This document shows positions 2,043-33,770 of a stretch of DNA of 64,000 nt, one piece after another. The position numbers were made by a program, and so were the translations under genes. Each line of letters begins with the position of its first letter. Positions within the stretch are counted from its first letter, which is position 1. Under the pieces are notes generated by a model. It searched no databases and was not told where the DNA came from. It saw only the letters and a program-made list of their open reading frames with translations. The DNA comes from Syntrophomonadaceae bacterium (GTDB lineage: Bacteria > Bacillota > Syntrophomonadia > Syntrophomonadales > Syntrophomonadaceae), in contig JAVBKS010000034.1 of the NCBI GenBank assembly GCA_031553935.1, forward strand, positions 5,034 through 69,033. Reading direction: 5' to 3'.

Positions 2043-2117
2043 GTATTCCCTCCTTCTAGTCAAAACCATCTGCCAGTATGAATGCTAACAAAATCCTTCA
2101 ATAAAATTATAAATTTT

Positions 2118-7014: not shown

Positions 7015-7090
7015 TTGAAATTTTTGATCGGGATTATAATTGTGCCTCAAAATCCTTTTAAGTTTACGGGATATCTATATTCCCACCCCA
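7015..7090. repeat. Copy of a second ~78-bp repeat module overlapping the 3-prime end of the 7047..7964 CDS
   Basis: TTTTGATCGGGATTATAATTGTGC ... CCTTTTAAGTTTACGGGATATCTATATTCCCACCCC matches 9800..9878. Both encode (L/E)(G/E)WEYRYPVN(L/I)K on the minus strand. Confidence 0.7.
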
Positions 7091-7964: not shown

Positions 7965-8039
7965 ACTCGATCTCCCCATCTATTATGGCCATAGGTAAAA
8001 TGACATTACTGTTTCCAGGCTTCAAACCATTAACACCAG

Positions 8040-8645: not shown

Positions 8646-8814
8646 GCTAATACTTGTATACCCTCTCCGATTGTATTTCTGCTTGAACTACTTTCCCAAG
8701 CTCATTCATCCAATTGTTGCTGTTATTAATGTGGTCAACTTTATGTCTCTCACCGAGCGTCAACAAGTTGTGTTGTTGTCGCCATCTTCGTTAATTGAGC
8801 GAACATTGTCAATA

Positions 8815-9585: not shown

Positions 9586-9799
9586 TTCGCTATCTCCTTC
9601 ATCAAGTAGTCGCAAACCATATTTATAAATATCATATTCTCTCTTTTCTTCCTTTTAATCCAGGATTTTTGTCTACATAGGCTTGAGCAACAAGTACCAA
9701 AGTGACACATCTATTGGCAACATGTTGTAATTTTTCACTGGATAGGAAGTCGAGAAAAACGCCCAGCGACTGACATCTATTATCATGTTCTTTCTGGAG

Positions 9800-9878
9800 G
9801 TTTCAAATTTTTGGATATAGGATTATCATTGCACGATAAAACACTTTTATGTTTACGGGATACCTGTATTCCCATTCT
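9800..9878. repeat. Second copy of the ~78-bp repeat module, here non-coding
   Basis: CAAATTTTTGGATATAGGATTATCATTGCAC ... CACTTTTATGTTTACGGGATACCTGTATTCCCATTC aligns to 7015..7090. Confidence 0.7.
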
Positions 9879-9938
9879 AAGTTTCATACGCAGAAAAATA
9901 CCTCATGCAGAGAATCTTCACTTGCTAGAGTTCGTAAG

Positions 9939-10264
9939 TTACCATAGCTTGCCTTGAATGAATTCATATTCTGTTTTTAGCTCATATGCTCTTCGTTTAT
10001 ATCTTTCATATTCAAATTCTGCTGCATCAATCCCCCCCAAAGTCCCCCCTTCATATTCAGCAATAATGAGCTGCATATCTAAATTTGCATCTTCAAATGC
10101 AAATTCTTCCCATTTCATTTGGGACTTGATAAGGCCTATTTTTCCTTCTTCCATTTGATTAGCGGGCTAATTCTTTTCAAGGTATAATTCTGAGAGAGGT
10201 ATAAAAACCCGATCACGAACAAAAATATTATGCTTATTATCACTATGATGGTTTTCTTGTTCAT
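9939..10264 (-). pseudogene. Frameshifted gene for a small membrane-anchored protein (42-aa TM-anchor ORF plus 71-aa ORF in the next frame)
   Basis: The ATG at 10264 has an AGGAG RBS and encodes MNKKTIIVIISIIFLFVIGFLYLSQNYTLKRISPLIKWKKEK-stop (stop at 10136..10138). The 71-aa track ORF starts at 10154 in a different frame, and that frame is closed by a stop only 4 codons upstream of its ATG. Confidence 0.45.
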
Positions 10265-10404
10265 TCTATTCTTCTCCTACTCAAAAAAATCATCTATAGA
10301 ATATCTAGCTAAGTCTCGCATGTAAGTAGTTGGCTCGGTTCAATATTCATTTGGCACAACCAGACGTGTCAATGGGACGAAGATGGCGGAGGAATGACGC
10401 CCAT

Positions 10405-11016
10405 TTATGGTCGATAATCGATTATTGCATACAAGTAATCAGTCCCATCTATTTGGACAAATACAGCTACTAACCCGTAAATAAATAACGCAGTATTATC
10501 TTGAATGTTATCGACGTCTGCACAAACAAGAATAAATCCATTCTTTCTTTTAATTATCGTAGGTTTATTATCTATAGAAACCCCTTGTCCAAGGATTTGA
10601 GCAATTTCTTCCGCATAAGCTGAAACTGAATCAATATTCATTGATATATATCCATCCAATTCGGTTGCATATATTTCTTTTTCACAGATCTCAAGGTTGT
10701 TAAGTGTTAGTGTCAAATCGATCTCTGCCTCTCCAAATACAGGAAAACGCAAATTTTCTGGAATATTTTCCTTTTCTAACTCTATTGCATAATTCTTACC
10801 CCTGACTCCGAAGCTCGAGCTGAAATATCTCATAATGTTTAATTCATCTTTCACCAAAGCCCGAAATGACTTTGCATCTCTATCTTCAATCGATTTCAAA
10901 AGAATAATACTCTTCTTTTCAGACTCCGAATGGTTTCCAATTACATAGATGGTAAAGCACGATATAGTAAATAAACCTATAAACAGAATAATAATAGCAA
11001 TCCATCTTCTTTTCAC
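10405..11016 (-). CDS. Hypothetical N-terminally membrane-anchored protein
   Basis: 203-aa ORF with a GTG start, an AGAGGTG RBS, and the anchor RRWIAIIILFIGLFTISCFTIYVIG. Confidence 0.55.
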   Translation of the reverse strand: MKRRWIAIIILFIGLFTISCFTIYVIGNHSESEKKSIILLKSIEDRDAKSFRALVKDELNIMRYFSSSFGVRGKNYAIELEKENIPENLRFPVFGEAEIDLTLTLNNLEICEKEIYATELDGYISMNIDSVSAYAEEIAQILGQGVSIDNKPTIIKRKNGFILVCADVDNIQDNTALFIYGLVAVFVQIDGTDYLYAIIDYRP

Positions 11017-11169
11017 TTAACACCTCTATTTCCAACATTACGCTTCATTCTGAATCATTCAATCTCAAAGGATCTTGTCGCGGGGACGGTAGACCAATGT
11101 CAGAAAGCTTAACATCCAGAATTGTCAGGGGACGTTTCTATTAACAATTTGCGGCAATTGCAGCAAATT

Positions 11170-11213
11170 AATAAGACTTTATTTTGCCAATCGCAGCATC
11201 ATAAAGTCTTATT
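11170..11213 (-). terminator. 13-bp perfect stem-loop downstream of the 463-aa SLH gene
   Basis: AATAAGACTTTAT (11170..11182) pairs with ATAAAGTCTTATT (11201..11213) around an 18-nt loop. It lies about 60 nt after the stop at 11276. The U-tract is weak. Confidence 0.4.
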
Positions 11214-11275
11214 ATTTATTGGCATTATATTCTTTTATTAGAAGCACCTATGCCCTTAGCGTGTTGCTTCCGCTC

Positions 11276-12667
11276 TTAAAGCTTAAATAGTAACTTTAAT
11301 GTAACCGCAGCTTCGGCGCGATTGGCGTTTTGGGTGCCGTTAATAAAGAAGCCTTGTTCATTTGCTTTGACCAAGTGCCCTTGTTCCAGCAGTCCGCGAT
11401 GTTGAGCATATGCTATATATGGTCTAGCCCAAGTGCTTATGCGGGTTTCTTTGGCAAAAGCAGCGATCAAATTCTGCTCGGCATTTAGGGCTTGTTGCTC
11501 TTCTCCGCTAGCTCTGACCACCATGGCTACCATCTCTTCTACTGTAAGCGGAGTATGCGGCTTAAAGGTTCCATCTTGATAACCATATACAATTCCCTTG
11601 CTAACTGCCCAATTAACATGCTGTTCATACCATGATCCGGCTTCAATATCAGAAAAGGTGCTCGCAGAGTTACTTACTTGACTGTCCTTTGCCATTTCTC
11701 TGCCCAGCATTGTCACAAACATTGCCCGGGTTAGATTCTGCTGTGGGGCAAATTCTCCTTCAGCAATTCCACTGATAATCCCTTTTGCCCCTAGCGCCTT
11801 AATTGCATCCTGCGCCCATTCGAAACCGGCTAGATCATTAAACTGCACTGCTTTCTCCCCGGCATTCCAGAGTGCAACTTCACTATTGCTATGCCCTGCA
11901 CCTACTGCAATTGCTTTAACCTTAAGCCCTGCTTTTATGGGAAGGGGGACATTTAATTGGGGCTGGTAATAACTGGCGCTTACATTATAGATTTTGCTGT
12001 TAATCGTGGGCTCTGATTCATCTGTTGTGTAATAGATCTTTACTAGGTCATAATTCTTATGGCCGAGTTCCAGTACTTCTTGCTTCTGTTCATTTAAGCC
12101 GGTTGTAAAAGTCACCGCTTCCCAGGAGGTTATTTTTTCGGTGGTAACTTCTATGTCAGCTAAGTATTTAACCATCCAGGGGCTGGTCTGTTCGCCTTTG
12201 ACCCTCTGCCCAAGGATTAGCATTAATTCTTTATCTGCTAAATCATTAAAGCTTTTGGCACTTCCTTTAAGTTGAATAAGGGCCGGAACGCGAGCCTGAG
12301 AGCTGCCGTTAAAACTATAGCGCGGATCGTTCAACAGTTCTTGACATGTAAATGTTCGGCTATAGCCATCAGATGCCGTAACTTTTATCAAGGTCGCCTC
12401 CGGCTTGTATCCAGCAAGCTTGAGAACGTTTTCCAAGGGTATACCCTCTGCATATTCAGTTTTGTCAGAGGGAAAATTGTTAGTGTGGGTATAGACATGC
12501 CGTTCTTTGCCGGCTGTGGCTTCAAGTGTCGCTCTATCTAATGTCAATACTTTTTCCACGCCATTGCCGTGAATCTTGACACTTTCGCTAGCCTCTGCAG
12601 TATTTGCTTGAAAAAAAAGCAATAATGTAAAAACCCATGCTGTTAAGGTAATTTTCTTGATGATCAA
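11276..12667 (-). CDS. SLH-domain cell-surface protein with one sulfite-oxidase-fold (molybdopterin-binding-like) module and a chitobiase/Fn3-like domain
   Basis: 463 aa. TTG start with an AAAGGAG RBS, and the signal peptide MIIKKITLTAWVFTLLLFFQANTAEA. The module RHVYTHTNNFPSDKTEYAEGIPLENVLKLAGYKPEATLIKVTASDGYSRTF ... LMLILGQRVKGEQTSPWMVKYLADIEV is followed by YYTTDESEPTINSKIYN. Three C-terminal SLH repeats are present (FNDLAGFEWAQDAIKAL..., FSDIEAGSWYEQHVNWAV...). Confidence 0.8.
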   Translation of the reverse strand: MIIKKITLTAWVFTLLLFFQANTAEASESVKIHGNGVEKVLTLDRATLEATAGKERHVYTHTNNFPSDKTEYAEGIPLENVLKLAGYKPEATLIKVTASDGYSRTFTCQELLNDPRYSFNGSSQARVPALIQLKGSAKSFNDLADKELMLILGQRVKGEQTSPWMVKYLADIEVTTEKITSWEAVTFTTGLNEQKQEVLELGHKNYDLVKIYYTTDESEPTINSKIYNVSASYYQPQLNVPLPIKAGLKVKAIAVGAGHSNSEVALWNAGEKAVQFNDLAGFEWAQDAIKALGAKGIISGIAEGEFAPQQNLTRAMFVTMLGREMAKDSQVSNSASTFSDIEAGSWYEQHVNWAVSKGIVYGYQDGTFKPHTPLTVEEMVAMVVRASGEEQQALNAEQNLIAAFAKETRISTWARPYIAYAQHRGLLEQGHLVKANEQGFFINGTQNANRAEAAVTLKLLFKL

Positions 12668-12722
12668 AAAATTGCTCCTTTCTGATTTTCAACTTACCAG
12701 ATGATTGATGCTGCTCATCTAG

Positions 12723-12762
12723 CGTGTCGCAGGGTGTCAATTCTTCCGTCCCCTGCGACACG
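12723..12762 (-). promoter_or_regulatory. 12-bp perfect GC-rich stem-loop between the giant SLH gene and the 463-aa SLH gene (no U-tract)
   Basis: CGTGTCGCAGGG (12723..12734) pairs with CCCTGCGACACG (12751..12762) around a 16-nt loop. It lies in the 111-nt intercistronic gap. Confidence 0.6.
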
Positions 12763-12778
12763 TACCATCTAAACTTTC

Positions 12779-15700
12779 TTATCTTTGCATAAATATTTCC
12801 AGAATCTTTTTGATGATAGTTGAGGCTTCAGCCCGGCTGGCATGATCCTGGGGCTTGAAATTACCATCCATATCACCATTAAGGATTTCTAGGGCATGCA
12901 TCTCATTAACAGCGTTTAAGGCCCATGCACTGATCTGATCTTGATCTGCAAATGCTTCTGCCTCTTCATCTTGACTCAATCCCAGATTGAGTTCAGTGAT
13001 AAATTTGTAGGTTATTAAAGCCATTTGTTCACGGGTGATTTCTGTATCCGGCTTAAATAATCCGTCTTCAAATCCATTTACGATCTTTTGTTCGGCTGCC
13101 CAGAGGACATATTTTCCATACCATGCAGCAGGATCAATGTCTTCGAAACTGGTTTCCGGGTTGAATTCTAGTCTCAAGCCTTCGATAGTTGCAGCAAGCA
13201 TTTTTATAAATTCAGCTCGGGTAACATTGGCATTAGGATCGAATGCATTCTCAGCCTTGCCGCTGACAACAGCTCTGGCTGCCAGGAACTCCACATTCTT
13301 GCTAGCCCAATGATCTACAGAGTCACCAAAGGTCTGATCATTATAGCCGACTGCAAAAACGCTGAGATGATTAATAAAGCCTATTACCGCTTTGTCATCA
13401 GCATTATAGCCAGACATCGGTATAGCTACTCTATTTCCATTAGCATCAACATGATAGGCAAGTATTTTATCTTCTTTTTCTTCTTCACTCGGAGTATAAG
13501 GTATTGCAAATTTCAAAAAGCTCTGCAGTGAAGTTAGCTCCGTGCCATCAACGGCAAAACTAATATCAATCGCCGGATGCCCTGGATTCGATTCTTCTTG
13601 GCCGTTATCAATGTTAGCTACGGCAATTGTTGCAGTATTACCACTTTTCATTGCTGCTAATAAGCCCGCTAAGACCTCGGTAACAACAGTCAAATCGCCG
13701 TGATTAGTCCTAATGGATAGACCGGCTTGCCCTTGATCTACCAAGCGTTTGAGCACCTCATAGGGCAATTCTACAACTGACTTGTTTATTGTCTCGCCAG
13801 TACTACAGTTTACGATAATGTTCTTGCTGCCGGTGTCATCTGCCAGAACTTTCAGCGCTTTTTCCATGTCTTCAACCGTGATTGCCATGCTGGCTACACC
13901 ATTTTCTACCTTGACTTGGCTTTCCAGGGCTAAAGGAGTCTTTTCTTCTTCCTGTTTCGTATTGCTGCTGCCTGAGGATCCAGGTCCAGGAGTTCCTTCT
14001 CCGTTATTACCTGTGCTGGTACTGATTTCAATATCGCTTACATCACTTACCCAGTCGTCTCTATTGACATCATCGGTACTTTGCTGGGCAACAACTAGTT
14101 GTAAACCAGAGAGTGTATTACCACTTTGTTTCCAAGCTAAGAGCATTGGACCGCCATTAATGAAATTCATGGTTGGCTCACCACTGCTATCGATATTGTA
14201 TACTCGGTAATAGCCATCTGCACTTGAGATTTTGACGCTTTTTCCTCCTGATAATAAGCCGGAATTATTTAATACCGTTGATAGTTTAATTCCAGTAAAA
14301 CTCTCAGTTCCTTTAGAGCCATAATTATTAAGCCACGGATAAGATGCAGTTGTTGATCCCAGGTTTTTCAAATCATTGAGCGAATAATCTTTGTTTGACC
14401 CGTTTCTAGTTACAGTGAGAATGGCATCATTTTCGCCACCGCCTGTTCCGCCTCCGATGTTGAAAGTATTATATGCTAGTCCAGCATCAGAGCCGACATA
14501 TAAAGTGTTGCCGACGAAACCTAGATAATAGATATTATCCATGCCAACAATGTCAGGCCAAGCTTGGTTACCTGAACTATATACATTTTCTATTTCGTTT
14601 AGTTTTTTGCAATAGATAACTCCTGATCCGGAAGTCCCAAACCACAGACCATCGGCTTTATCTACTGCTACCATGCGGATTTCGTGATTACCAGCCAGAT
14701 TTTCCCCAAGTAATTCTTTGCCGGTGTAACTCACGACTGTGCGGTTCGAGCCGCTGCCGCTTACATGGTCTACTCTTCCGCCAACATTGGCTAAGGTTGG
14801 ATATGAACCTGAACGAACTATCCAAGCGCCGCCCTTACTGTCTACCGCAATTCCGCGTACCCAGGCATCAGCCAATAATGATGACTGCAATGTGCTGTCA
14901 TACTGACCTTCATAGGTTTTAGCAAAATCAATCACTCCGGCAGAATTCATATGAGCGTATCCGCCTTTGAAGAGATCATTTTCTGTACCGGTTCCATCAG
15001 GATAACAGCCTATCCATAAGCCTCCCGATTTCTCGAAAGTTATGGTATTGACAGATGCTGCCGGTAAACCATCGGCTTTGGTCCAGGTCCGCCAGGTATT
15101 AGCGGTGGGGTCGTACTTGGTAATTCCGCCAAAGGAACCGAACCAAACATCACCCTTACTGTCAATCTCGATGGCTTGGACATAATCACTGGGGATAGTC
15201 GCCGGATTATCTGCGGCCCGATACCAGGTTATACTGCCATTTTTCAGGTAGCCTATTCCTCTGTTATTCTGAGGTTCACTGTAGCTGGCATTCTGGCTGA
15301 ACCAAACCCCGCCGTCCTTGTCAACAGCCAGAGCGGAGACAAAATCATTTTCCAGCTTTGGTGTACCCTCAGTATTATAAAATGTAAAGCTGGTGTCCGA
15401 AGCAGATTTATAGGCCATGCCAGTGCCATAAGTGCCAATCCAAATTCCATTTTGACTGTCCACTTTAATGCTTCTGATTTTGGCATAGGGAAGATTAATA
15501 CTTGAAACGAAAGAATTAAACGTGTATTTAATCGGCATGGTTACCGATATTCCCTTAATACTAGTCAAACGGTTCTGCCAGTTCTCACCATCATTGAAGT
15601 TGCGATAAATTCTTACAGTTGCTTTAACCCCGTTTTTATCCGCATCTTCGATTTTAGCCAATTCCTCTAGGCTAGGTCCGGCATCATAAGCTAAAAAGTA

Positions 15701-18700
15701 TTTCTTAGCTATGGCATCCTTTAATAATATGTCGCGGTAACTCTCTTGCTTAGTTTCATAGCCGTCGGTAGTATTAATAGTGATTTTGGCATCGGGGTCA
15801 GTTACCCCGGCATCCGCTAATATATCCTGCAGATAAGCACCCTTGACATAATCAGTTTTCTTCTCTCCGGCTTGAGTATAAGAATAATTAGCAGTGGCTT
15901 TGCCTTTATCATTAGGCAGTTGCATGATTCCACCGGCACCGCCAATCCTATAATTCTTGACTCCTGCACTTAAACCGAAAATGCTGAAGTCATTAGTATC
16001 AACCGGTATCACAACTTCCGAATCTCCTACTACGATTTTCTCAAGCCATTTTACGCACCAGCCGGTATTATCATGGACAACTAGGCGCAATGGCCCGAAT
16101 GCATTGCCGTAGTTAGAATCGTAACCGGGGGATTGTTCGTTCTCGACCAAGGGCAGGCCCTGAGTGGCATTGAGACCCTGACCATAAGCAATTATGATGG
16201 GCTTCCCATTAACTCCATTCTTGAGTTGGGCGCCGTCAAATTGGGCTGAAAAACCACCCGAATACGCGGTAACAACCGCAGTATCCAAACCATCTTTAAA
16301 ACCTATCCCCTGCAGGTATTTATATAGATCTATACCTTGCATAAAGAATTCGCCGCCCATTTTGTAGGTGTCGGCAACTTTAATATTGTCTAATGCTTCT
16401 AATGCAGCTACTGTAACCTTCTGCGGGGTTGCAATTTTATTGCCGTTTATCTCCAGCTCGTGACTGGCATAGGGCGCGAAGTTTCCAGACTTGTGGGTCC
16501 AGTCATTAATGGCACCGGCTATAAGCTCGATCTCGGTTACTGATGTAATGCACTGGCTTGCAGTGCCATTATTAATTATCAGCCGCAGTGGACCGCCGCT
16601 ATTATTGTATCCGGCGTCAAAGCCCGGTGATTGCTGTTCCGGCACCAATGGCTTCCCATCAAGAATTCCGCCGCTGCCAGCAATACCATAAGCCAAGATG
16701 ATTTTTTTGTTGCTGTCTGTCAAGTCGGCAATACTTAATTCGATACTATCTTGGCCATTTTTAACTATGATAGCGTTCAGCAAGGCACTGCTGCCTATCG
16801 AGCTGTCGTTTAGCAAGCGGAATAGTTCCAAGCCTCTATAAGTAACCGCTTTGTCTCCAATGGTATACTCTCTCGTGGATAAATACTTTTGCTTCTTTTC
16901 TAAGTCGCTGATTTTAATATCACCAGGTTTAGCCAAAGCCCCTGAGAACTTAACTTCCATATCGCCATAACCAGAATAGGTTTCACCGGTATGGGCATAA
17001 GCATCAGCTTCCATATTAACTACTATCTTGGTTAGGTTCTCGACTATGGTTTTGTTGTCATTGATGGTATCTACAATTCCGCCATTCTTTTCTTGTTCAG
17101 TCTGGCCACGAACGAATAGCAAAGGCCCGCCGGTATTCTTAATAACTTTTCCGGTCACAGTATCGCTATCTACATATCCCGTACCTTTTCCGTTTACTAA
17201 GGGATAGCCATTTTTGGCAAAGGCAATCATCATGCCAAGTTTATCCGTGCCGTTAATACTGTTGAAACCCTCAGCTCCAAGTTGATTCAATTGATAAGAT
17301 GCCTTCAGGGTGTCACCGCCGTATAGATCAACACTTCCCAGACTTCCAGGTAAACCTATATATTCGGTCAGTAAATAATTCAGGTTAACTCCTTCGAATA
17401 GATCCTGTATTTGATCGCCATTACCTGCTTTCTTGTAGTAATAGTAACCCTTTTCCTGGCGTCCTTCCGTATCCCTAATCTTTTTGGTTATTCCTGTTCC
17501 ATAGAGGATGTTTTCTAATTGCGATAGGGTTAGCTCATGACTTTCTTGGGTGCCATTTATTTCTATAGTTAAGGCTGGGTTGTCTTTCATTGCAGCATAA
17601 TCGGGATTCTGGGCATGGGTTGAGTAACGAATTTCGTCGCCCACATATATTTCTTGGGCCCGCTGCAGCTGATTAGAACCGTTATTGTAGAAATAGGCAT
17701 AGTTATCTGGAGCATTACTGTCAATGCGATTCATATTATCGGCTTTGCCAAAAATAACCCTAACCGGTCCGCCGTCATTGCCCAGTCCGCTGCGAAAGCC
17801 CTCTAGAGTGCTGCTGCGCACATAAGGATAACCGTTTACACCATATGCCAGTAAAACCGGATAACCTTTTTTAACCGGATAGTTATTAGAGTCCTTGCTC
17901 CAATTGCCTTCACGGTTGTCGGGCTGATAAGCTGCAGTTGCCAGCTGTTCTTTTGTAGGTCTGGCGGTTCCGATATCTAAGGGTGACTTCTCATAAAACA
18001 TGAATAAATCTGGATTAGCTAGCTGTTGCAATGAGAATTTCGCTGTGGTCAGATAATTATCCCAAGCCGTAAATGATACCAGATTAGTATTATCATTTTT
18101 ATATTGTTCAGCATCCAGACCTAATTTCTGGGTAAGCAATTCCCAGAGCTTAATGCCTTCGTATTCATTTACATACCAATAAGTAGTGTTGGAAAGACCA
18201 TATTCATCTCGGTATCCCAAACCATCTGCTTTCGGTCTCTTATTATCGTCGTATTCGACCATGGCTTCGAGTTCAGCTATGGTATAGTTAACCTCTCTTC
18301 CCAGTAGGGCTCCGGTAAAAGTTAATAAGTATTCGGTATTGGTCTTATTGCTATAGGCCGGATCAAGTGCCTGAGAATGCTTGTAACCAGGTGTGCCCCC
18401 ACTGGGTTCAACATAAATATAGGCTACACTGAGGAATTTTTTCGACTTACTTATATTCTGAAACTCGTTTAAATCATAGACCAATTTCAAACAGCCGTCA
18501 TCATTGCCGAGTTCGGGCTTAGTTCCGAGTGCTCCATCATAAACGAATGGGGCTACACTAGTACCATCCAAGGTTCCGGTACCATAGGCTAAAATCAGCG
18601 GTTTCTTGGCAGTTATTACATCATTATATGGAATTCGGGCTACCTCCTGGCGCCAGCGGTTCTTGAAAACTAAAACTACATCTTCGTCTACTTTGGCAAC

Positions 18701-20464
18701 TGTTGCTTTTACATGGCCTTCGATTATGTCTTTGATTATTATTCCTTCATATAATAATGAAGTTTCATTATCACGAAAATCATTGTAGGCGCCGCGATGA
18801 ATATAAGCATCAGCACTGTTTTCTAATTCCCGCACTGACATCGGTGTAGTGGCCTTGACTCCAGGGCCTTCTACCGTCAAGGTTGCACCGGTAATAGCGT
18901 CGATATTATAGGGAGCACTGCCGCTTAAGCCGCCGTTATTAATGTGCTTATAGGGACTGCCGGCATAAGATTTTTCATCAATTGTGATATTATCAACCAT
19001 TTTAGCCGGGGTCATGTTATCGACATATAGGGTTAAGTAGCCTTTGATTGTTTTATCATTTTTAGCTGTTGAATAAATCGCTTCCCAATTGCCTTGATTC
19101 TTGGTTTCATAGGCCAGAATGGCATGCTTATCAACAAGATCTTTTTTAGTCATACCATCTGCAGCTACTTTAAAGCCATCTGCAGCAGCAAACTTAATTA
19201 CATCATTGTCTTTGTATTTTTCCAAAAGCTTAGCTAGGGATACTCCCCTCACTTCGGCCACGGTTTCATCAGAAGCACCCGTCTTTACAAAACGATGTTC
19301 CTGCTCAGTACGTTCCATCATCAATAATTGCGCCCGGGTGTAATTGTCGTCTTTGGTCTTGAGGGCTATTGTTGCAATTGGTTGCTGGTCCCCGATCAAT
19401 ACTCTGAACAAGGGAGTGGGGCCATTAAAGAGGGGATTATTGTAGTCGTTTAGCGCTAATTGTCCGGCCATGATGCGCAGTTTCGAGTCATCATAAGCGC
19501 TGACTTCAGTTGGTGTTTCGATTGTTCCTCTTGCTCCGCCTTCAGCCCAAGCTACAATAGTCGGAACCTCAATTGCGCCTGCGTCGCTATTATCTCCTAT
19601 CTGGGGATAATAGTAGCGGTCAGCTGTAAAAACCTGTGAAATATTTGCCTCATTTGTTACACCAACTGTAGTTTTTGCTGGATCAAATACTATTTTATAA
19701 CCATCACCAGCGAATACAGTCACTTTATTATTGGCTAAATCAGCATCAGTTTTTGCTAATAAAGCTGCAAGTCTTATGCCTTCACCTCGGAAAACACTCT
19801 TTGTATTAGCTGTATTTATGGCCGAGTATAAGTATTGGTTATTAGCAGCTGCATTCTCGTCTTGTTCAGCAATTGCCAAAAGTTCAGCCAATGAATAAGC
19901 TTTCTCTTGGTTAATATTATTTTCCGTATATTCACCATTTCCGATAATTGCATTTCCGCTTATTAATAATACCGGCTGTTTGGCAGCTCTCATCTGCTCA
20001 TAGTCCAAGGACTGGGAGCCAAGAAGCATATTAAGCAATGATTCATCTTCCAGTTTCATTTCCCAAACATTTGACTGATCTGAATCTTCTGCTTCTGTTT
20101 CTGCTTCTATGGTATCGGAATCAGAGGGCAATTGTTCTTGTCCAGTGGCAGCCTGATCTGCTTCATCCGGTCCTCGGATTTGATCAGCATCGCCTTCATC
20201 TGGTGCTTCTGCCAATGGCACCTCAATCACTTCATCTAGTTCTGAATCTGTTAAATCACCGGCCTCATTCGCATTTTGCCCCTCTAATTCAACAGCATCA
20301 TTATCAGGAGTTTCATTAGTGTCAATGATTTTTACTTCTGTATCTGTTGCCCAAGCCTGTCCTAGAGAAAGGCCTGAAGGTGCAAGTATTTGCATAATGA
20401 AAGCCAAAATGATTATATAACTGATCAAAGATCTGCTATTTTTTTGGTTTCTGGTTTTTAGCAT
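12779..20464 (-). CDS. Giant (~2561 aa) S-layer-homology-anchored protein: ~9 tandem sulfite-oxidase-fold (oxidoreductase molybdopterin-binding-like) modules, a Reg_prop-type beta-propeller, and 3 C-terminal SLH domains
   Basis: The track ORF starts with TTG at 20524. The ATG at 20464 has an AGGGGG RBS and gives the signal peptide MLKTRNQKNSRSLISYIIILAFIMQILAPSGLSLGQAWA. Repeated modules end in ILAYG...GGPLRLIINNG, IIAYGQG...FGPLRLVVHDNTGWCVKWLEKIVV and LLAYGVNG...GGPVRVIFGK, as in the YedY/MsrP and sulfite oxidase Moco domain. Propeller blades include IRSIKVDSQNGIWIGTYG, VSALAVDKDGGVWF and VQAIEIDSKGDVWFGSFGG. SLH repeats begin at FGDSVDHWASKNVEFL.... Confidence 0.85.
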   Translation of the reverse strand: MLKTRNQKNSRSLISYIIILAFIMQILAPSGLSLGQAWATDTEVKIIDTNETPDNDAVELEGQNANEAGDLTDSELDEVIEVPLAEAPDEGDADQIRGPDEADQAATGQEQLPSDSDTIEAETEAEDSDQSNVWEMKLEDESLLNMLLGSQSLDYEQMRAAKQPVLLISGNAIIGNGEYTENNINQEKAYSLAELLAIAEQDENAAANNQYLYSAINTANTKSVFRGEGIRLAALLAKTDADLANNKVTVFAGDGYKIVFDPAKTTVGVTNEANISQVFTADRYYYPQIGDNSDAGAIEVPTIVAWAEGGARGTIETPTEVSAYDDSKLRIMAGQLALNDYNNPLFNGPTPLFRVLIGDQQPIATIALKTKDDNYTRAQLLMMERTEQEHRFVKTGASDETVAEVRGVSLAKLLEKYKDNDVIKFAAADGFKVAADGMTKKDLVDKHAILAYETKNQGNWEAIYSTAKNDKTIKGYLTLYVDNMTPAKMVDNITIDEKSYAGSPYKHINNGGLSGSAPYNIDAITGATLTVEGPGVKATTPMSVRELENSADAYIHRGAYNDFRDNETSLLYEGIIIKDIIEGHVKATVAKVDEDVVLVFKNRWRQEVARIPYNDVITAKKPLILAYGTGTLDGTSVAPFVYDGALGTKPELGNDDGCLKLVYDLNEFQNISKSKKFLSVAYIYVEPSGGTPGYKHSQALDPAYSNKTNTEYLLTFTGALLGREVNYTIAELEAMVEYDDNKRPKADGLGYRDEYGLSNTTYWYVNEYEGIKLWELLTQKLGLDAEQYKNDNTNLVSFTAWDNYLTTAKFSLQQLANPDLFMFYEKSPLDIGTARPTKEQLATAAYQPDNREGNWSKDSNNYPVKKGYPVLLAYGVNGYPYVRSSTLEGFRSGLGNDGGPVRVIFGKADNMNRIDSNAPDNYAYFYNNGSNQLQRAQEIYVGDEIRYSTHAQNPDYAAMKDNPALTIEINGTQESHELTLSQLENILYGTGITKKIRDTEGRQEKGYYYYKKAGNGDQIQDLFEGVNLNYLLTEYIGLPGSLGSVDLYGGDTLKASYQLNQLGAEGFNSINGTDKLGMMIAFAKNGYPLVNGKGTGYVDSDTVTGKVIKNTGGPLLFVRGQTEQEKNGGIVDTINDNKTIVENLTKIVVNMEADAYAHTGETYSGYGDMEVKFSGALAKPGDIKISDLEKKQKYLSTREYTIGDKAVTYRGLELFRLLNDSSIGSSALLNAIIVKNGQDSIELSIADLTDSNKKIILAYGIAGSGGILDGKPLVPEQQSPGFDAGYNNSGGPLRLIINNGTASQCITSVTEIELIAGAINDWTHKSGNFAPYASHELEINGNKIATPQKVTVAALEALDNIKVADTYKMGGEFFMQGIDLYKYLQGIGFKDGLDTAVVTAYSGGFSAQFDGAQLKNGVNGKPIIIAYGQGLNATQGLPLVENEQSPGYDSNYGNAFGPLRLVVHDNTGWCVKWLEKIVVGDSEVVIPVDTNDFSIFGLSAGVKNYRIGGAGGIMQLPNDKGKATANYSYTQAGEKKTDYVKGAYLQDILADAGVTDPDAKITINTTDGYETKQESYRDILLKDAIAKKYFLAYDAGPSLEELAKIEDADKNGVKATVRIYRNFNDGENWQNRLTSIKGISVTMPIKYTFNSFVSSINLPYAKIRSIKVDSQNGIWIGTYGTGMAYKSASDTSFTFYNTEGTPKLENDFVSALAVDKDGGVWFSQNASYSEPQNNRGIGYLKNGSITWYRAADNPATIPSDYVQAIEIDSKGDVWFGSFGGITKYDPTANTWRTWTKADGLPAASVNTITFEKSGGLWIGCYPDGTGTENDLFKGGYAHMNSAGVIDFAKTYEGQYDSTLQSSLLADAWVRGIAVDSKGGAWIVRSGSYPTLANVGGRVDHVSGSGSNRTVVSYTGKELLGENLAGNHEIRMVAVDKADGLWFGTSGSGVIYCKKLNEIENVYSSGNQAWPDIVGMDNIYYLGFVGNTLYVGSDAGLAYNTFNIGGGTGGGENDAILTVTRNGSNKDYSLNDLKNLGSTTASYPWLNNYGSKGTESFTGIKLSTVLNNSGLLSGGKSVKISSADGYYRVYNIDSSGEPTMNFINGGPMLLAWKQSGNTLSGLQLVVAQQSTDDVNRDDWVSDVSDIEISTSTGNNGEGTPGPGSSGSSNTKQEEEKTPLALESQVKVENGVASMAITVEDMEKALKVLADDTGSKNIIVNCSTGETINKSVVELPYEVLKRLVDQGQAGLSIRTNHGDLTVVTEVLAGLLAAMKSGNTATIAVANIDNGQEESNPGHPAIDISFAVDGTELTSLQSFLKFAIPYTPSEEEKEDKILAYHVDANGNRVAIPMSGYNADDKAVIGFINHLSVFAVGYNDQTFGDSVDHWASKNVEFLAARAVVSGKAENAFDPNANVTRAEFIKMLAATIEGLRLEFNPETSFEDIDPAAWYGKYVLWAAEQKIVNGFEDGLFKPDTEITREQMALITYKFITELNLGLSQDEEAEAFADQDQISAWALNAVNEMHALEILNGDMDGNFKPQDHASRAEASTIIKKILEIFMQR

Positions 20465-20534
20465 ATATGTAGTACCCCCTATTATCTTTTCTTTCCTTTT
20501 CATCACATCAATAATTCGTGGCAATTAATATCCA

Positions 20535-21677
20535 TTAATCTACCATTATCAATGAATCGACCAAACCAGGTGTTGTCGTTATACCCAGGTCATTACCAAT
20601 AATCACTCCTTCCATCATAAAATCGGTTTTCGCCTTAGAGAATTCCCCTATAAACTGCATGCCCTTTTCCGGACCCATAACCATTAACGCTTTGGTCATC
20701 ATATCAGCCTCAGTGGAGCTTTTTGCTATCACGGTAGCCGCAACACATTTGGTTGTTGGCTTTCCTGTCTGGGGATCAAATATATGATGATATCTCTGGC
20801 CATCAATCTCGAAATACCTCTCGTAATCACCAGAGGTCACCAGTGAAGCATCAACAACCGGCAAAACTGCAATTACTGCATTTTCGTCCTTACGCGGATG
20901 TCTAATTCCTATCTGCCAAGGCTTCCCATCCGGCTTGGAACCCACTGCATATACATTTCCTCCCGCATTAATTATGGCATGTTTTATTCCCTGTTCTTTC
21001 AGTTTTTCTACAGCTTTGTCAGTAGCATAGCCCTTAGCAATTCCGCCCAAATCCATTATCGTACCCCTGTTAACCATGATTTCATCTCCGGCAAGCGTAA
21101 TACCCTTGTAATTGCCGGCTTGCAGAGCTATCGCCAGTTCATCAGCTGTTGGTATATGTTTTTTACCCTTAATGTCCCATAAGTCACTTACCCGTCCCAA
21201 ACCGATGTCAAAAGTGCCACGACTAAGATCACCAAATTCTAAGGCCCTACTAACCATGGCAATTAAATCCGGTGATACTTTCACCCAAGAACCGGGCGAA
21301 TTATTGATTCTGTATACGTCGCTGCCGCTGGGATCCTGCAAGTTTCGGGCTGCAAATCTATCGGCTAGAATATCAATGCGGTTGTATTCAGCTTCAACCG
21401 CTTGCCTTGATTTTTCTGCCTGTTCGGGCGATTCGGCATAAATTATCAAAGTGATTACAGTATCAAGCGCAAAGAAATTGGTTCTATACTCAGACAGATC
21501 GGCAGCACTTACGTTAGGATTAAGTGTATTGCGTTCACTAATTGAATGGCCGCCATTTTGGCAAGCATTTACGAAAGGAAGAAATAATATAAGAGCAATG
21601 ATGATCTTGGCAGATGATTTGGTTTTACGTAACTTTTCTGAACTTGATCCTAAAAAATACAAAACACATTTCCCCAT
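20535..21677 (-). CDS. apbE: FAD:protein FMN transferase (ApbE family), predicted lipoprotein
   Basis: 380 aa with ApbE hallmarks GGIAKGYATDKA, INAGGNVYAVG and TSGDYERYFEIDGQRYHHIFDPQTGKP. The lipoprotein signal is KIIIALILFLPFVNAC. The stop codon lies 10 nt from the giant ORF and about 70 nt from its likely ATG. Confidence 0.9.
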   Translation of the reverse strand: MGKCVLYFLGSSSEKLRKTKSSAKIIIALILFLPFVNACQNGGHSISERNTLNPNVSAADLSEYRTNFFALDTVITLIIYAESPEQAEKSRQAVEAEYNRIDILADRFAARNLQDPSGSDVYRINNSPGSWVKVSPDLIAMVSRALEFGDLSRGTFDIGLGRVSDLWDIKGKKHIPTADELAIALQAGNYKGITLAGDEIMVNRGTIMDLGGIAKGYATDKAVEKLKEQGIKHAIINAGGNVYAVGSKPDGKPWQIGIRHPRKDENAVIAVLPVVDASLVTSGDYERYFEIDGQRYHHIFDPQTGKPTTKCVAATVIAKSSTEADMMTKALMVMGPEKGMQFIGEFSKAKTDFMMEGVIIGNDLGITTTPGLVDSLIMVD

Positions 21678-21756
21678 TTCGAAATAGATAAAAAGATCTC
21701 CGGCAATTTAAATGCTCTTCGAGCTTTCCTCGTCAGCCGAGATCAAGCCTGATAAA

Positions 21757-21780
21757 TAAAAAAAGCCTGCGCAAGCAGAC
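21757..21780 (-). terminator. Intrinsic terminator inside the apbE leader (candidate riboswitch expression platform)
   Basis: The minus strand reads GUCUGC-UUGC-GCAGGC followed by UUUUUUUAUUU. An alternative pairing of upstream AAGCCU with AGGCUU is possible. It lies about 80 nt upstream of the apbE ATG. Confidence 0.6.
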
Positions 21781-21796
21781 TTCTTCTAGGCTTCAC

Positions 21797-21893
21797 TTGC
21801 TTTCCTTTCCAAACGGGAGGCTTATTCGTTTCCAAACAAACCCATCGGTTAGCAACCATGGCAGTGCTTTAGGTATACTAACTCGGATGCAGA
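21797..21893 (-). ncRNA. Candidate molybdenum-cofactor (Moco) riboswitch aptamer
   Basis: The minus strand reads CAUCCGAGUUAGUAUACCUAAAGCACUGCCAUGGUUGCUAACCGAUGGGUUUGUUUGGAAACGAAUAAGCCUCCCGUUUGGAAAGGAAAG. The 3-prime core GCCUCCCGU..UGGAAAGG matches the E. coli moaA Moco element as I recall it (GCCUCCCGUAUCUGGAAAGG). A hairpin immediately precedes CCUCCC (UUGUUU-GGAAAC-GAAUAA). A CCU..GCAC..CCAUGG/AUGGG segment parallels CCUCUGCACCUGGG/CCAGGG. Matched from memory, not by a covariance model. Confidence 0.65.
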
Positions 21894-22117
21894 TAAAATT
21901 ATTAAATTATTCAATATTTTCTTTTTCTAAGTGAAAGTAAATGTCAATATTAACATAATAATATCATAATTCCATCTATTTCGACAATAGTTGAGCAAAT
22001 TTTCTGATAATTTAAAACATTTCGTGATTTCTCGATTATTACGAGCTGAGTTATAAAAATGTTTTCTAAAGCTCGAAAAAAGGCTAAACTTAATAAAACG
22101 CATTAAAGGTGATTCAT

Positions 22118-23671
22118 ATGAAAAAAATTCTAAGTATCCTATTAGCAGCACTGTTTATACTTATTTATGATCCAATAGTCTTAGGCGACATTTATATCGA
22201 AAACGGGGTCCCCACTGAAAACCCGCGCAGATATGTTTATGACGATTTTCAATTAGTAAAAAATGCCTCTTCCGGCATTAACATCATTTATGATTATCCG
22301 AAAGGTTACTCCCTATTCTATCCGGCTAACCTTGAAATAGACACTTCACTCAGCGAGATAAAAACAGTATTGGCGAATAAGGATACTCAGATTGAAATCT
22401 ATAGAGATAACTTTGCTAAGACTACGTATAATTTCAATAGTTACCATAGTATCAGTAATTATTTTCTCAATAACGGTACTGATCATAAACTGCAAGAAAA
22501 CCGAACAGTAAAAATAAATGACCACACTGCTTATTTACTAAAATGGAACCGGGCGAAATTGAAACAAATCGAAAATGACAAGAACAATTATTTAAGTTTG
22601 GAAATCGCGGTTTCCCCAACTCTAGTTTATACAATTATTGTTAAGTCAAGCCATGAAGTTGACGCCATACTTCCTTATTTAACTACTTTCAACTTAATCG
22701 AAACTCAAGGCGCACCACATAACAATACAATTTTTAAGCCGGTTGAGAAAGATTGGAATGAGGAAACCAAGCTTTTCTTCGATGAGTATTTTTCTCCTGA
22801 GGCCAAAATAAATTGGGGCATTTACGAGCATACTGCACCGGCTAGCTTAGACTTCTTGAAACAATTGGAAAGCAAACTCGGCCATAGATTCAGCATTTTA
22901 ACCCATTATCATACTTTCCATACCCCATTTCCTATGCAGGAACTTAAGAATGCTTATGCTGAGAAGCGTATAGTAGAACTAACTCTGCAGACAATGTGGT
23001 TTAAGCGCGACAATAACAGCACCATTTATCAGATTCTAAATGGCGATTACGATGTGTATTTTAAGAATTATGCCCTGAAAGCAAAAGAATTTGGCCATCC
23101 CATTCTCTTCCGCTTCAATAATGAGATGAATGCAGAGTGGTGCTCCTATTCCAGTTATTTCACGTCTAAGGATCCGGAGCTCTTCAAAGCTATGTGGCGT
23201 CACATTTATAGTATTTTCCAAGAAAATGGCGCCGATAATGTATTGTGGATTTGGAATCCCACTGATGTGTCTTACCCGACTTTCAAATGGAACAGTGCCC
23301 TAAACTATTTTCCCGGTAATGAGTATGTAGATATCGTAGGACTAACCGGGTACAATACCGGAACTTATTATCAAGGCGAAAACTGGCGTACTTTCAGTCA
23401 GATCTATGATCCCCTTTATACCGAATACTGTTTAGCTTTCGATTACCCCTTTATGATTACTGAATTTGCTTCCAGCTCAGTTGGCGGCAATAAGGAGCTA
23501 TGGATTGCAGATATGTTTAAACAAATCGAACGCTTCAAAAAAATCAAAGTAGCCATTTGGTTCAATGGAGTCGATTTCGATGCTAATATGCAGCAGGCTC
23601 GCAAATACCGTTTAGATGATACCCAAGCGGTTGTCAATGCCTTCAAGGATGGATTTAAGCAGTATAATTAG
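22118..23671 (+). CDS. Secreted glycoside hydrolase family 26-like protein (beta-mannanase-type)
   Basis: The track ORF starts at 22109. An AAGGTGA RBS precedes the ATG at 22118, giving the signal MKKILSILLAALFILIY. The C-terminal half has GH26-like motifs FRFNNEMNAEWCSYS, LWIWNPTD, YVDIVGLTGYN and ITEFASS. Confidence 0.65.
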   Translation: MKKILSILLAALFILIYDPIVLGDIYIENGVPTENPRRYVYDDFQLVKNASSGINIIYDYPKGYSLFYPANLEIDTSLSEIKTVLANKDTQIEIYRDNFAKTTYNFNSYHSISNYFLNNGTDHKLQENRTVKINDHTAYLLKWNRAKLKQIENDKNNYLSLEIAVSPTLVYTIIVKSSHEVDAILPYLTTFNLIETQGAPHNNTIFKPVEKDWNEETKLFFDEYFSPEAKINWGIYEHTAPASLDFLKQLESKLGHRFSILTHYHTFHTPFPMQELKNAYAEKRIVELTLQTMWFKRDNNSTIYQILNGDYDVYFKNYALKAKEFGHPILFRFNNEMNAEWCSYSSYFTSKDPELFKAMWRHIYSIFQENGADNVLWIWNPTDVSYPTFKWNSALNYFPGNEYVDIVGLTGYNTGTYYQGENWRTFSQIYDPLYTEYCLAFDYPFMITEFASSSVGGNKELWIADMFKQIERFKKIKVAIWFNGVDFDANMQQARKYRLDDTQAVVNAFKDGFKQYN

Positions 23672-33662: not shown

Positions 33663-33770
33663 TTTTTATTCCTCATAAACTAATTAAAAATATCATATAA
33701 TTTTTTAGCCTTTTTATACTTACACTATATATCAGCCACTGCATCAAAACAACCATGCCAAATTAAACAA

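Follow-up and report, generated by a model that had tools for sequence, protein, structure and literature searches.

Why a bacterium should display ten modules of a molybdoenzyme fold on its S-layer, next to an enzyme for the covalent attachment of flavin and behind a riboswitch for the molybdenum cofactor (Moco), is the question raised by a locus of a Syntrophomonadaceae bacterium (assembly GCA_031553935.1, contig JAVBKS010000034.1, positions 5,034 to 69,033 of the forward strand). The whole stretch of 64,000 nucleotides (nt) that was analysed is called the window in the following, and its positions are counted from its first letter. The leader, the gene apbE and the genes of a large and a small S-layer-anchored protein form one transcription unit which opens with a P3-less riboswitch for Moco or the tungsten cofactor (Tuco) and with an intrinsic terminator (Table 1). 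According to profile and structure comparisons the modules have the fold of sulfite oxidase (SUOX), and they may bind a pterin of the molybdopterin family as cargo or substrate instead of using it as a catalytic cofactor. We propose, with a probability of roughly 40%, that the operon serves the surface capture and the redox handling of such a pterin for import and that it is turned off when the cofactor is plentiful.

A first-pass annotation made from the letters of the window had described this combination of features as new, and the literature searched (8 million papers; flavinylation together with molybdopterin, Moco uptake or salvage, energy-coupling factor (ECF) transporters together with Moco) contained no account of the combination, no description of the gene set and none of a bacterial uptake of Moco. 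The arrangement is considered real rather than a product of chance because of the match scores and because it is kept in other genomes.

The operon and its modules

The riboswitch aptamer proposed in the first-pass annotation was confirmed by a covariance-model search, in which RF01055 matched with 65.2 bits (gathering score 36, E 2e-13) over model positions 1-135 with the P3 positions deleted. By this feature the aptamer falls into the P3-less subclass, for which sensing of Tuco has been proposed, and P3 is missing as well in all 12 related aptamers aligned with it. The leader terminator of the annotation was also recovered, as a hairpin (AAGAAGUCUGC-UUGC-GCAGGCUUUUU, -12.7 kcal/mol according to RNAfold) followed by the U-run UUAUUUAUC; it begins 0 nt past the Rfam match and does not overlap with the 3' strand of P1. 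Since the upstream neighbour, a GH26 glycoside hydrolase gene followed by that of an IS200-type transposase, is divergent, the leader must own a promoter, for which a consensus scan, in itself weak evidence, suggests a candidate with 9 of 12 consensus positions and an extended -10 TG.

The apbE product was correctly recognised as a lipoprotein FAD:protein FMN transferase (FAD, flavin adenine dinucleotide; FMN, flavin mononucleotide). It matches the Pfam family ApbE with 269.7 bits over profile positions 1-257 of 266 and the NCBIfam family with 131.6 bits, and its N-terminus consists of a hydrophobic segment closing with the lipobox-like sequence LPFVNAC. The large gene follows after about 70 nt. 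Its open reading frame (ORF) extends from an upstream TTG (12779-20524, minus strand, 2581 amino acids (aa)), the likely start being an internal ATG which results in a protein of 2561 aa, identical to the public-database protein P0001. The protein is composed, in this order, of a Sec signal, an acidic linker, modules M1 and M2, the flavinylation site, modules M3 to M8, a beta-propeller, module M9, an unknown domain and three S-layer homology (SLH) repeats. Both the large and the 463-aa small protein combine a signal peptide with an SLH anchor (84.9 bits in the small protein), and the latter carries one further module, as had been annotated.

The count of about nine modules in the large protein was borne out by hidden Markov models (HMMs) built from the orthologous segments of 120 homologues, according to which these nine modules and the one of the small protein are mutually homologous. 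Orthologue-derived HMMs were needed because the modules are too divergent for a self-BLAST of the large protein, which revealed no internal repeats at E 1e-3. In the Pfam search, ApbE, SLH (three stretches, 125 bits in the large protein) and Reg_prop (60.7 bits) were detected as the first-pass annotation had expected, the last of these in agreement with its beta-propeller; Oxidored_molyb, in contrast, appeared only as a sum of 63.8 bits over weak stretches of the large protein. No single module exceeded the cutoff of 24 bits (best scores 22.4, 21.3 and 16.3), and six of the nine modules gave no match. The family assignment of the modules therefore rests on the summed Pfam score together with the structure comparisons.

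Two classes of modules were distinguished. Class A (M3-M7) opens with an invariant [YW]-x-H and closes with ...G-N-x-x-G-P-L-R-L..., and class B comprises M1, M2, M8, M9 and the module of the small protein. The [YW]-x-H motif is located at ORF residues of about 526-528, 713-715, 1158-1160 and 1322-1324 (window 15995-18950), that is, in M3, M4, M6 and M7. In these four modules, which were looked at individually, its His is invariant among the homologues (H9 and H175 in alignment A2, H23 and H212 in alignment A4). In M3 this His is followed by the flavinylation motif and then by the first strand; the His might ligate a bound cofactor or make a contact between modules.

The AlphaFold2 (AF2) model of M6-M7, based on an alignment of 26 sequences, reached a predicted local distance difference test (pLDDT) score of 91.9. 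Each of its top 44 Foldseek matches in the PDB has the SUOX fold (SorA, SoxC, nitrate reductase, YedY, sulfite oxidase and PruR; E 3e-7 to 1e-3), with template modelling (TM) scores of 0.63-0.73 for PruR when normalised to the PruR chains of 134-149 aa. For the model of the flavinylation motif with M3-M4 (pLDDT 82.5) the significant matches were PruR structures only. Similarly, the class-A profile found just two entries among 177,635 PDB sequences, both of them PruR (E 4.7e-5 and 1.3), and a phmmer search with the module of the small protein against the PDB sequences returned noise only. By profile and fold, the modules resemble PruR at least as closely as they resemble the SUOX enzymes. Against 1.84 billion cluster representatives the class-A profile retrieved 467 proteins at E <= 1e-3 and 99 at 1e-30; judged from these sequences, the module family is a small separate clade and not a mainstream enzyme family. 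The flavinylation motif and M3-M7 stand alone as a 1042-aa lipoprotein in other genomes. This core-only form indicates that the motif with M3-M7 is the conserved heart of the protein, M1, M2, M8, the propeller, M9 and the SLH repeats being additions.

In SUOX enzymes the molybdenum is held by a conserved Cys on an extended hairpin (PMC11194511). The large ORF contains six cysteines in 2581 aa and the small protein one, none of them at the Mo-ligand position of any of the ten modules; in an alignment of the modules with PruR fragments this position is occupied by hydrophobic or polar residues, and by P-W in M9. The Cys-bearing hairpin is short in the modules, as in PruR, and genes neighbouring the homologues encode SUOX-like proteins that likewise lack cysteines except for lipobox or transmembrane ones. 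PruR, too, lacks the Mo-ligand Cys and has a Trp instead; its hairpin is shortened, and N102, Y104 and W160 enclose the small pterins that it binds (PMC11194511). At the position of its N102/Y104 (N-x-Y), [DN]-x-[YF] occurs in seven of the ten modules (DGY and DGF in M1 and M2), and the P-W of PruR recurs only in M9.

The signals of the window proteins and of their homologues are of the Sec or lipoprotein type. Strings resembling a twin arginine were found in 6 of 116 homologues without a consensus for twin-arginine translocation (Tat); they were regarded as incidental, and Tat export was rejected. Exported Moco enzymes (YedY/MsrP, SorA) use Tat since their cofactor is inserted in the cytoplasm. 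Because Moco insertion is cytoplasmic, a protein exported via Sec could meet a pterin only outside the cell.

The DAITGAT motif noted in the first-pass annotation (ORF residues 542-548) is an exact ApbE motif D-x-x-[S/T]-G-A-[S/T], and its last Thr (residue 548) is the predicted FMN site. Seven residues of this kind suffice for ApbE (PMC12052999). The motif is kept as Y-x-x-D-A-I-T-G-A-T-L-T-V in at least 101 of the 120 homologues, and the 1042-aa core form, which a regular expression for the motif misses, has a variant of it at its extreme N-terminus. In the window protein a Y-K-H motif precedes it and the first strand of M3 follows; the loop in which it lies was modelled with a pLDDT below 50. 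A canonical FMN_bind domain (PF04205) around the motif was not reached (19.3 bits against a cutoff of 22, profile positions 35-67 only), and there is one flavin motif in the 2561 aa. ApbE presumably attaches FMN to DAITGAT outside the cell, and the sequence supports the predicted flavinylation of the large protein well. The protein family would then represent a new class of ApbE substrates without an FMN_bind domain.

Riboswitch linkage, regulation and companion genes

Homologues of the large protein with 35-55% identity were detected in Syntrophomonas, Peptococcaceae, Oscillospiraceae, Proteiniborus and other Clostridia, in metagenome-assembled genomes from termite gut, rumen and digesters. 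Related loci, designated by L and a number, were searched for with an alignment of eight full-length proteins, and their companion genes were mapped by tblastn over 22 loci in combination with Pfam and NCBIfam. In 12 of the 16 loci with enough upstream sequence to be tested, an RF01055 match in the same orientation closely precedes the gene or its operon (the window, L001, L003, L005, L006, L007, L010 as a borderline case, L012, L014, L015, L016 and L017); it was not found in L009, L011, L019 and L020. The first-pass annotation had suggested examining this co-occurrence beyond one genome, and the recurrence of RF01055 before homologues of 35-55% identity indicates that the association is no coincidence of a single genome.

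The association of the riboswitch with SUOX-like proteins has been glimpsed twice without being analysed. Regulski 2008 (PMC2408646), who correlated P3-less RNAs with tungsten-cofactor metabolism, listed two of them before 'putative sulphite oxidase' genes of Syntrophomonas wolfei as exceptions without explanation, and Burroughs et al. 2007 reported extracellular 'SO + SLBB + beta-propeller' proteins in the same species. In both papers the S. wolfei relatives were read as putative (extracellular) sulfite-oxidase-like enzymes. The exceptions of Regulski 2008 are very probably members of the present family. An SLBB domain was not detected by Pfam in the window proteins. In Eubacterium limosum, P3-less riboswitches also head a tungstoenzyme operon (wor1), tupABC and 'iron' ABC transporters (PMC11725836).

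The sign of regulation was derived from the expression platforms. In one scan a separate terminator was found after 12 of 14 aptamers, with none 3' of the aptamers of L012 and L017, and all four aptamers of Clostridium aceticum and Natronincola ferrireducens are followed by one. The terminators start 0-70 nt past the Rfam match (at most 10 nt in the window and six other leaders), and none overlaps P1. An ON design would need an overlap of the terminator with P1, while antiterminator arrangements are classic for OFF switches. In L016 the 5' arm of the terminator is complementary to the 3' core of the aptamer (-17.8 kcal/mol, 0 of 300 shuffles), and the same complementarity was observed in both L001 copies and in L014; in total, the test for such an antiterminator duplex against shuffles was significant in 4 of the 12 leaders in which a terminator had been detected. 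When the whole window leader was folded for minimum free energy, every low-energy structure retained the terminator, so that this folding did not discriminate between ON and OFF. The leader of the C. aceticum ECF operon described below is similar in design to that of the neighbouring tup/mod-like transporter. Because the terminators are separate from P1 and because the terminator arm pairs with the aptamer core in L016, L001 and L014, the window leader is, by analogy, rather likely to be an OFF switch which stops transcription once cofactor is abundant in the cell. Some caution about this sign is called for, as the same aptamer class also heads the tungstoenzyme operon and ABC transporters of E. 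limosum (PMC11725836).

The locus that matches the window best is L016 (Syntrophomonas sp. UBA4922), where the large protein is 52% identical. On one strand and with short gaps, this locus contains the riboswitch, apbE, the large and the small SLH protein genes, an S component, a 170-aa membrane-anchored SUOX-like module (SUOX-170), EcfA, EcfA', EcfT, MobB, a kinase and NusG_II. The S component belongs to PF09819 (43 bits), the YkoE family. Upstream, a Metallophos lipoprotein fused to a module and a CHB_HEX_C unit, as in the small protein of the window, is followed by two more module proteins, one with FMN_bind. The large protein of L016 is split into two overlapping ORFs (9845-17871; 1463 and 1212 aa), which may reflect a frameshift, an assembly error or a real two-protein form.

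An ECF set of the L016 type is also present in L001, L005, L007, L012 and L015 as well as in L022 and L023. L019 has the set without the S component, and L009 and L010 have the S component only, in L010 together with a SUOX-like 170 protein. MobB scores above its NCBIfam cutoff in L001, and the 210-aa kinase is Bud32/APH/ThiK-like (APH/RIO1-like). The gene apbE is located within the operon in the window and in L016 and adjoins the large gene in L003, L005, L012, L013 and L019. Ecto-phosphoesterases of two unrelated families were identified: an alkaline-phosphatase type in L001, L022 and L023, and the Metallophos lipoprotein fused to a module, which in L012 directly follows the riboswitch. The C-terminal half of these riboswitch-controlled Metallophos lipoproteins (L012, L016, L015, L005 and L019) is homologous to the module and CHB_HEX_C part of the small window protein. 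SUOX-like modules recur in every extracytoplasmic protein of the cluster.

In L001, one riboswitch leads an ecto-phosphodiesterase of the alkaline-phosphatase superfamily, the ECF set, MobB and the kinase, and a second one the large protein, two more module proteins and a NapH-like Fe-S/FMN_bind membrane protein; a gene for a tungsten-type aldehyde ferredoxin oxidoreductase (AOR) lies upstream. In L005 (26301-27600) a second P3-less RF01055 stands directly before moaC and moaA, right after the cluster of SUOX-module, ECF and ApbE genes.

A search with the S component revealed orthologues in the cultured species C. aceticum and N. ferrireducens. Their minimal operon behind a P3-less RF01055 encodes a 370-aa cysteine-less SUOX lipoprotein, the S component, a 500-aa ecto-phosphodiesterase, SUOX-170, EcfAA'T, MobB and the kinase, in N. 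ferrireducens with an additional leading FMN_bind lipoprotein. The M9 HMM matches the SUOX lipoproteins of both species. In C. aceticum the operon adjoins moeA and riboswitch-led transporters of the tup/mod-like and Peripla_BP_2/FecCD types. Within 11 kb of this locus (L022) there are three RF01055 copies (8530-8652, 18676-18800 on the minus strand, and 19017-19136), which lead the SUOX-like/ECF/MobB/kinase operon, the tup/mod-like ABC operon and the Peripla_BP_2/FecCD ABC operon. The last of these has a parallel in the 'iron' transporters controlled by Tuco riboswitches in E. limosum (PMC11725836), and its real substrate may merit a second look.

A metal transporter of the CbiM/NikM type was rejected for the relatives, as the S component is PF09819/YkoE-like and CbiN/NikN are missing; the JGI label for its homologues is 'thiamin/hydroxymethylpyrimidine transport permease'. 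A second ECF set (EcfA, EcfA', EcfT) lies on the opposite strand in L016 (24283-27434) and L012 (24167-28173) beside PF07456 (Hpre_diP_synt_I, ECF-S-like), NusG_II and ApbE. By analogy with Listeria it may supply FAD to ApbE as a flavin-trafficking module.

Proposed pterin salvage and its alternatives

The window operon would represent the outermost, cell-surface arm of a conserved system for cofactor acquisition. The wall-anchored array of SUOX-like modules would bind the pterin at the S-layer, and the co-encoded ApbE would install one covalent FMN on the large protein. This FMN would keep the oxidation-prone pterin reduced or re-reduce it, with a NapH-like or RnfG-like conduit supplying it in some of the relatives. 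In the relatives, a phosphoesterase would trim phosphate or nucleotide from the pterin, the membrane-anchored SUOX-like module and the YkoE-type ECF importer would take it in, and the small cytoplasmic kinase and MobB would re-activate it. The riboswitch would end transcription at ample intracellular cofactor, with expression of the operon when cofactor is scarce.

A ligand that bears a phosphate or nucleotide and is re-activated after import is suggested by the importer of the YkoE family, the two phosphoesterase families (one fused to a module), the salvage-type kinase and MobB. Taken together with the control by a Moco/Tuco sensor and the moa, moe and tup neighbours, these genes make a ligand of the molybdopterin family the most economical assumption. 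It may be Moco or Tuco, a dinucleotide form (molybdopterin guanine or cytosine dinucleotide, MGD or MCD), molybdopterin (MPT), cyclic pyranopterin monophosphate (cPMP) or a precursor, breakdown product or oxidised derivative. In its most specific form, the proposal states that the operon is the surface arm of a bacterial salvage of the Mo/W pyranopterin cofactor, or a near relative of it, released by other cells, with reduction by FMN, trimming by phosphoesterases, ECF import, rebuilding by kinase and MobB and OFF control by Tuco; in this form it is tentative.

Several observations weigh against pterin capture for import. No ECF, MobB, kinase or phosphoesterase gene is located within the 64-kb window, so that the link to import rests on the orthologues. 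The OFF sign, too, is carried over from the relatives to the window leader, whose own antiterminator duplex did not reach significance (z = -0.55). Outside proteins, free Moco is a chemically labile compound. Simple capture leaves the nine modules, the propeller and the predicted covalent flavin unexplained, and also the enzyme-like conservation of M3-M5 with its many invariant columns, which may mean that the core, beyond binding the pterin, converts it chemically. Since moaC and moaA adjoin the cluster in L005, at least one carrier can also make the cofactor de novo and is not an auxotroph. The pocket of PruR has been described as too short for the whole Moco (PMC11194511), and the ligand could accordingly be smaller or another pterin. 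Finally, membership in the Tuco regulon alone does not imply cofactor uptake, because the tungstoenzyme and 'iron' ABC operons of E. limosum share it (PMC11725836).

The first-pass annotation had interpreted the locus as a wall-tethered redox machine in need of both Moco and flavin, a model that amounts to an extracellular oxidoreductase with catalytic Moco or Tuco in its modules, an FMN that relays electrons and a riboswitch that matches expression to cofactor supply. Its flavin part is supported, with a genuine flavinylation motif and an ApbE; Moco as the catalytic cofactor is not, in the absence of both the Mo-ligand Cys and Tat signals. An enzyme would account for the SUOX fold, the riboswitch linkage, the NapH-like and FMN_bind electron conduit in L001 and the strong conservation of M3-M5. 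The C-terminal signature G-P-L-R-L-V-x...G-W-C-V-K-W of M6 and M7 in the module alignment, which we take to resemble a sulfite oxidase motif, was counted in its favour as well, as was the sulfite-oxidase-like reading of the S. wolfei relatives (Regulski 2008, PMC2408646; Burroughs 2007). Nevertheless, the Mo-ligand Cys is lacking in the ten modules, whose hairpin is short as in PruR, and in the companion SUOX-like proteins, a cofactor could not be inserted in the cytoplasm into proteins leaving by Sec or as lipoproteins, the importer, the kinase, MobB and the phosphoesterases would be without explanation, and the platform is OFF-like in the relatives. Because of the missing Cys, the Sec and lipoprotein signals, the PruR-only matches and the better fit of platform and companion genes with acquisition, a role as Moco enzyme is not supported, and a catalytic function of this kind seems unlikely. 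It is also doubtful, if less so, that the operon forms a flavin-based surface conduit for electrons or an extracellular reductase, serving extracellular electron transfer or the reductive assimilation of metals, with the modules as scaffold, substrate binder or pterin relay and the riboswitch providing the tie to tungstoenzyme metabolism that has been proposed for the Fe transporters of E. limosum. Such a conduit would readily accommodate ApbE, the flavinylation motif and the NapH-like and RnfG-like partners. Also in line with it are clusters for flavinylation that include large SLH proteins without annotation and are linked to iron assimilation (Meheust 2021), and the Peripla_BP_2/FecCD operon behind RF01055 in C. 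aceticum and E. limosum (PMC11725836). A single flavin site in 2561 aa is, however, unlike the multi-flavinylated wires, haem and Fe-S motifs are absent from the large protein with its six Cys, and MobB, the kinase, the YkoE-type S component and the module-fused phosphoesterases remain unaccounted for. Moreover, the occurrence of SUOX-like modules in every extracytoplasmic protein of the cluster suggests that the modules are its functional heart.

Two further functions appear less probable still. The vestigial anion pocket of the SUOX fold might capture oxyanions (tungstate, molybdate or thio-forms), the ECF transporter being an alternative W/Mo importer. The Tuco-riboswitch regulon beside a tup/mod-like transporter and conserved Arg residues of the modules (e.g. 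R61 and R311 in alignment A2) would be in line with this, but the S component belongs to the YkoE (thiamine/hydroxymethylpyrimidine, HMP) family and not to CbiM/NikM, CbiN/NikN are absent, phosphoesterases and kinase have no role in oxyanion uptake, and the closest cysteine-less relative of the fold binds pterins; oxyanion capture is therefore regarded as improbable. Very improbable is a PruR-like signalling or adhesion function in which the modules would serve to sense excreted pterins or to attach to surfaces or partner cells, even though the closest solved relatives are PruR sensors, the giant SLH-anchored architecture with a propeller is found in adhesins and the termite gut, rumen and digester sources are rich in syntrophic aggregates. 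Neither the window nor the related loci contain a DcpA-type GGDEF/EAL (or TorS/BaeS-type) sensor or another signalling partner; signalling or adhesion would also leave the covalent flavin, the importer, MobB and the kinase unexplained, and a riboswitch for an intracellular cofactor suits metabolism better than signalling.

Among known systems, PruR of Agrobacterium tumefaciens (PDB 7kos/7kou, 7kom, 7kp2, 7rkb) shares with the modules the extracytoplasmic location, the size of about 140-170 aa, the degenerate SUOX fold and the lack of the Mo-ligand Cys. PruR is, however, a single-domain proteobacterial sensor of folate-branch pterins paired with a DcpA-type c-di-GMP enzyme, whereas the window has ten modules on clostridial S-layer proteins with a predicted covalent flavin and a Moco/Tuco riboswitch; the class-A modules moreover retain the C-terminal SUOX signature and have the invariant [YW]-x-H in addition. 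With the SUOX molybdoenzymes (YedY/MsrP, SorA/SorT, sulfite oxidase, assimilatory nitrate reductase) the modules have the fold and the weak Oxidored_molyb similarity in common, but neither the Mo-ligand Cys nor Tat signals nor dimerisation or haem domains. As in the ApbE systems (NqrC/RnfG, NosR, PceC, Listeria PplA/FmnB), a lipoprotein ApbE is encoded beside a secreted motif protein, with NapH/RnfG-like partners in the relatives; unlike there, a canonical FMN_bind domain is missing and the motif lies in a linker before a SUOX-like module. The operon is an ApbE-linked extracytosolic flavoprotein system under a Tuco riboswitch and as such qualifies, in a broad sense, as one of the ApbE-associated extracytosolic clusters of Meheust et al. 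2021, where large unannotated SLH proteins are reported without mention of the riboswitch, the molybdopterin fold or MobB.

The relatives further resemble the riboswitch-controlled ECF salvage systems (YkoEDC-YkoF for thiamine/HMP, RibU, QueT/QrtT) in their S component of the YkoE family, EcfA/A'/T, an accessory binding protein and a salvage-type kinase. They differ in Moco/Tuco sensing, SUOX-like accessory proteins and the giant flavoprotein surface arm, and the window has no transporter. The system works most like riboswitch-controlled ECF salvage with surface capture proteins and its modules are most like PruR, but it is a member of neither, because the PruR operon partner is lacking and ECF genes are absent from the 64-kb window. 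The Tuco regulons of S. wolfei and E. limosum use this aptamer variant as well; in their descriptions (PMC2408646, PMC11725836) the cysteine-less flavinylated S-layer architecture and the link to ECF, MobB and kinase were not recognised. Surveys of riboswitch regulons list biosynthesis genes and Mo/W transporters for RF01055 and no cofactor uptake; a coenzyme-uptake role of the Moco/Tuco riboswitch is likewise not listed by Sun et al. 2013.

If the salvage reading is true, the pathway is categorically new. To our knowledge, Moco/Tuco is the sole major cofactor for which bacteria are assumed to depend wholly on de novo synthesis, and we know of no bacterial uptake or salvage route for it. The gene set is a concrete candidate for cofactor sharing among syntrophs in anaerobic communities of termite gut, rumen and digesters. 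The family would explain the 'sulfite oxidase' exceptions left from the riboswitch description of 2008 and would extend the idea of the SUOX fold as a pterin receptor, known from PruR, from proteobacterial signalling to Gram-positive surfaces. The minimal version in the cultured C. aceticum and N. ferrireducens makes the question directly testable. Should salvage prove wrong, the giant flavoprotein of the S-layer, with its nine molybdoenzyme folds devoid of cofactor, would still constitute an uncharacterised protein class.

Feature coordinates and surroundings of the operon

Table 1. Positions of the operon features in the 64,000-nt window.
Feature	Position	Strand	Evidence or remark
Transcription unit	21899 to 11276	-	Order: leader, apbE, large gene, small gene
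Candidate sigma-70-type promoter of the leader	21958..21987	-	TTGTCG, 18 nt, TG-TATTAT; consensus scan
Moco/Tuco riboswitch aptamer, P3-less variant	21786..21899	-	RF01055 covariance model
Intrinsic terminator of the expression platform, hairpin and U-run	21751..21785 (about)	-	RNAfold
apbE, lipoprotein FAD:protein FMN transferase	20535..21677	-	Pfam and NCBIfam ApbE
Large S-layer-anchored protein, 2561 aa	12779..20464	-	ATG at 20464
Modules M1 and M2, class B, cysteine-less SUOX-like	18905..19957	-	Cross-hits of M9, S1 and M8 HMMs
Predicted ApbE flavinylation motif D-A-I-T-G-A-T	18881..18901	-	ORF residues 542-548
Modules M3-M7, class A	15995..18862	-	HMM cross-hits, AF2 and Foldseek
Module M8, class B	15560..15997	-	Oxidored_molyb 16.3 bits alone; HMM cross-hits to M2, M9 and S1
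Beta-propeller, Reg_prop repeats	14510..15547	-	Pfam Reg_prop 60.7 bits summed; PorZ-like NCBIfam match
Module M9, class B	13985..14467	-	Oxidored_molyb 22.4 bits; alignment with PruR fragments
Three SLH repeats of the large protein, cell-wall anchor	12782..13315	-	Pfam SLH 125.1 bits, three stretches
Intergenic 12-bp perfect hairpin	12723..12762	-	Folding against shuffles
Small S-layer-anchored protein, 463 aa	11276..12667	-	Signal peptide, one class-B module (about 12113-12592), Fn3_assoc/CHB_HEX_C_1, SLH

The strong hairpin that the first-pass annotation had placed in the 111-nt gap between the large and the small gene was recovered as well. The region folds at -39.2 kcal/mol (z = -4.39), with none of 200 shuffles equally stable. 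The hairpin is GC-rich with a 16-nt loop, and a weaker second one is located at 12697-12722. No U-tract was found 3' of the 12-bp hairpin, which is probably an element of mRNA stability or processing rather than a terminator and may set the ratio of the large to the small SLH protein. By eye, a hairpin-like inverted repeat followed by an A/U-rich stretch is visible 3' of the stop codon of the small gene; a terminator scan across this region listed nothing.

Four ORFs downstream of the operon (7047-11016, minus strand; 203, 266, 201 and 310 aa) have N-termini resembling signal, lipoprotein or transmembrane segments. They were not counted as parts of the operon, as neither Pfam nor NCBIfam matched them and none of the related loci contains a counterpart. 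Upstream of the leader, the GH26 glycoside hydrolase is encoded at 22109-23671 (plus strand) and the IS200-like Y1 transposase at 23764-24552 (minus strand); the latter may mark a rearrangement that parted the operon from the ECF, MobB and kinase genes located downstream in the relatives.

The region 24774-37608 is rich in large surface proteins without relation to the SUOX modules. It encodes, on the minus strand, a second giant SLH protein of 2293 aa with Flg_new and DUF7619 (24774-31655), a LuxR-type regulator (32019-33662) and a 1219-aa Big_13 protein (33949-37608). At the other end of the window (360-2069, minus strand), a 569-aa protein combines three Shr-like haem-binding HID domains with a Cu_amine_oxidN1 'stalk' domain. 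It may capture haem at the surface and would then be a second cofactor-scavenging surface protein of the window.

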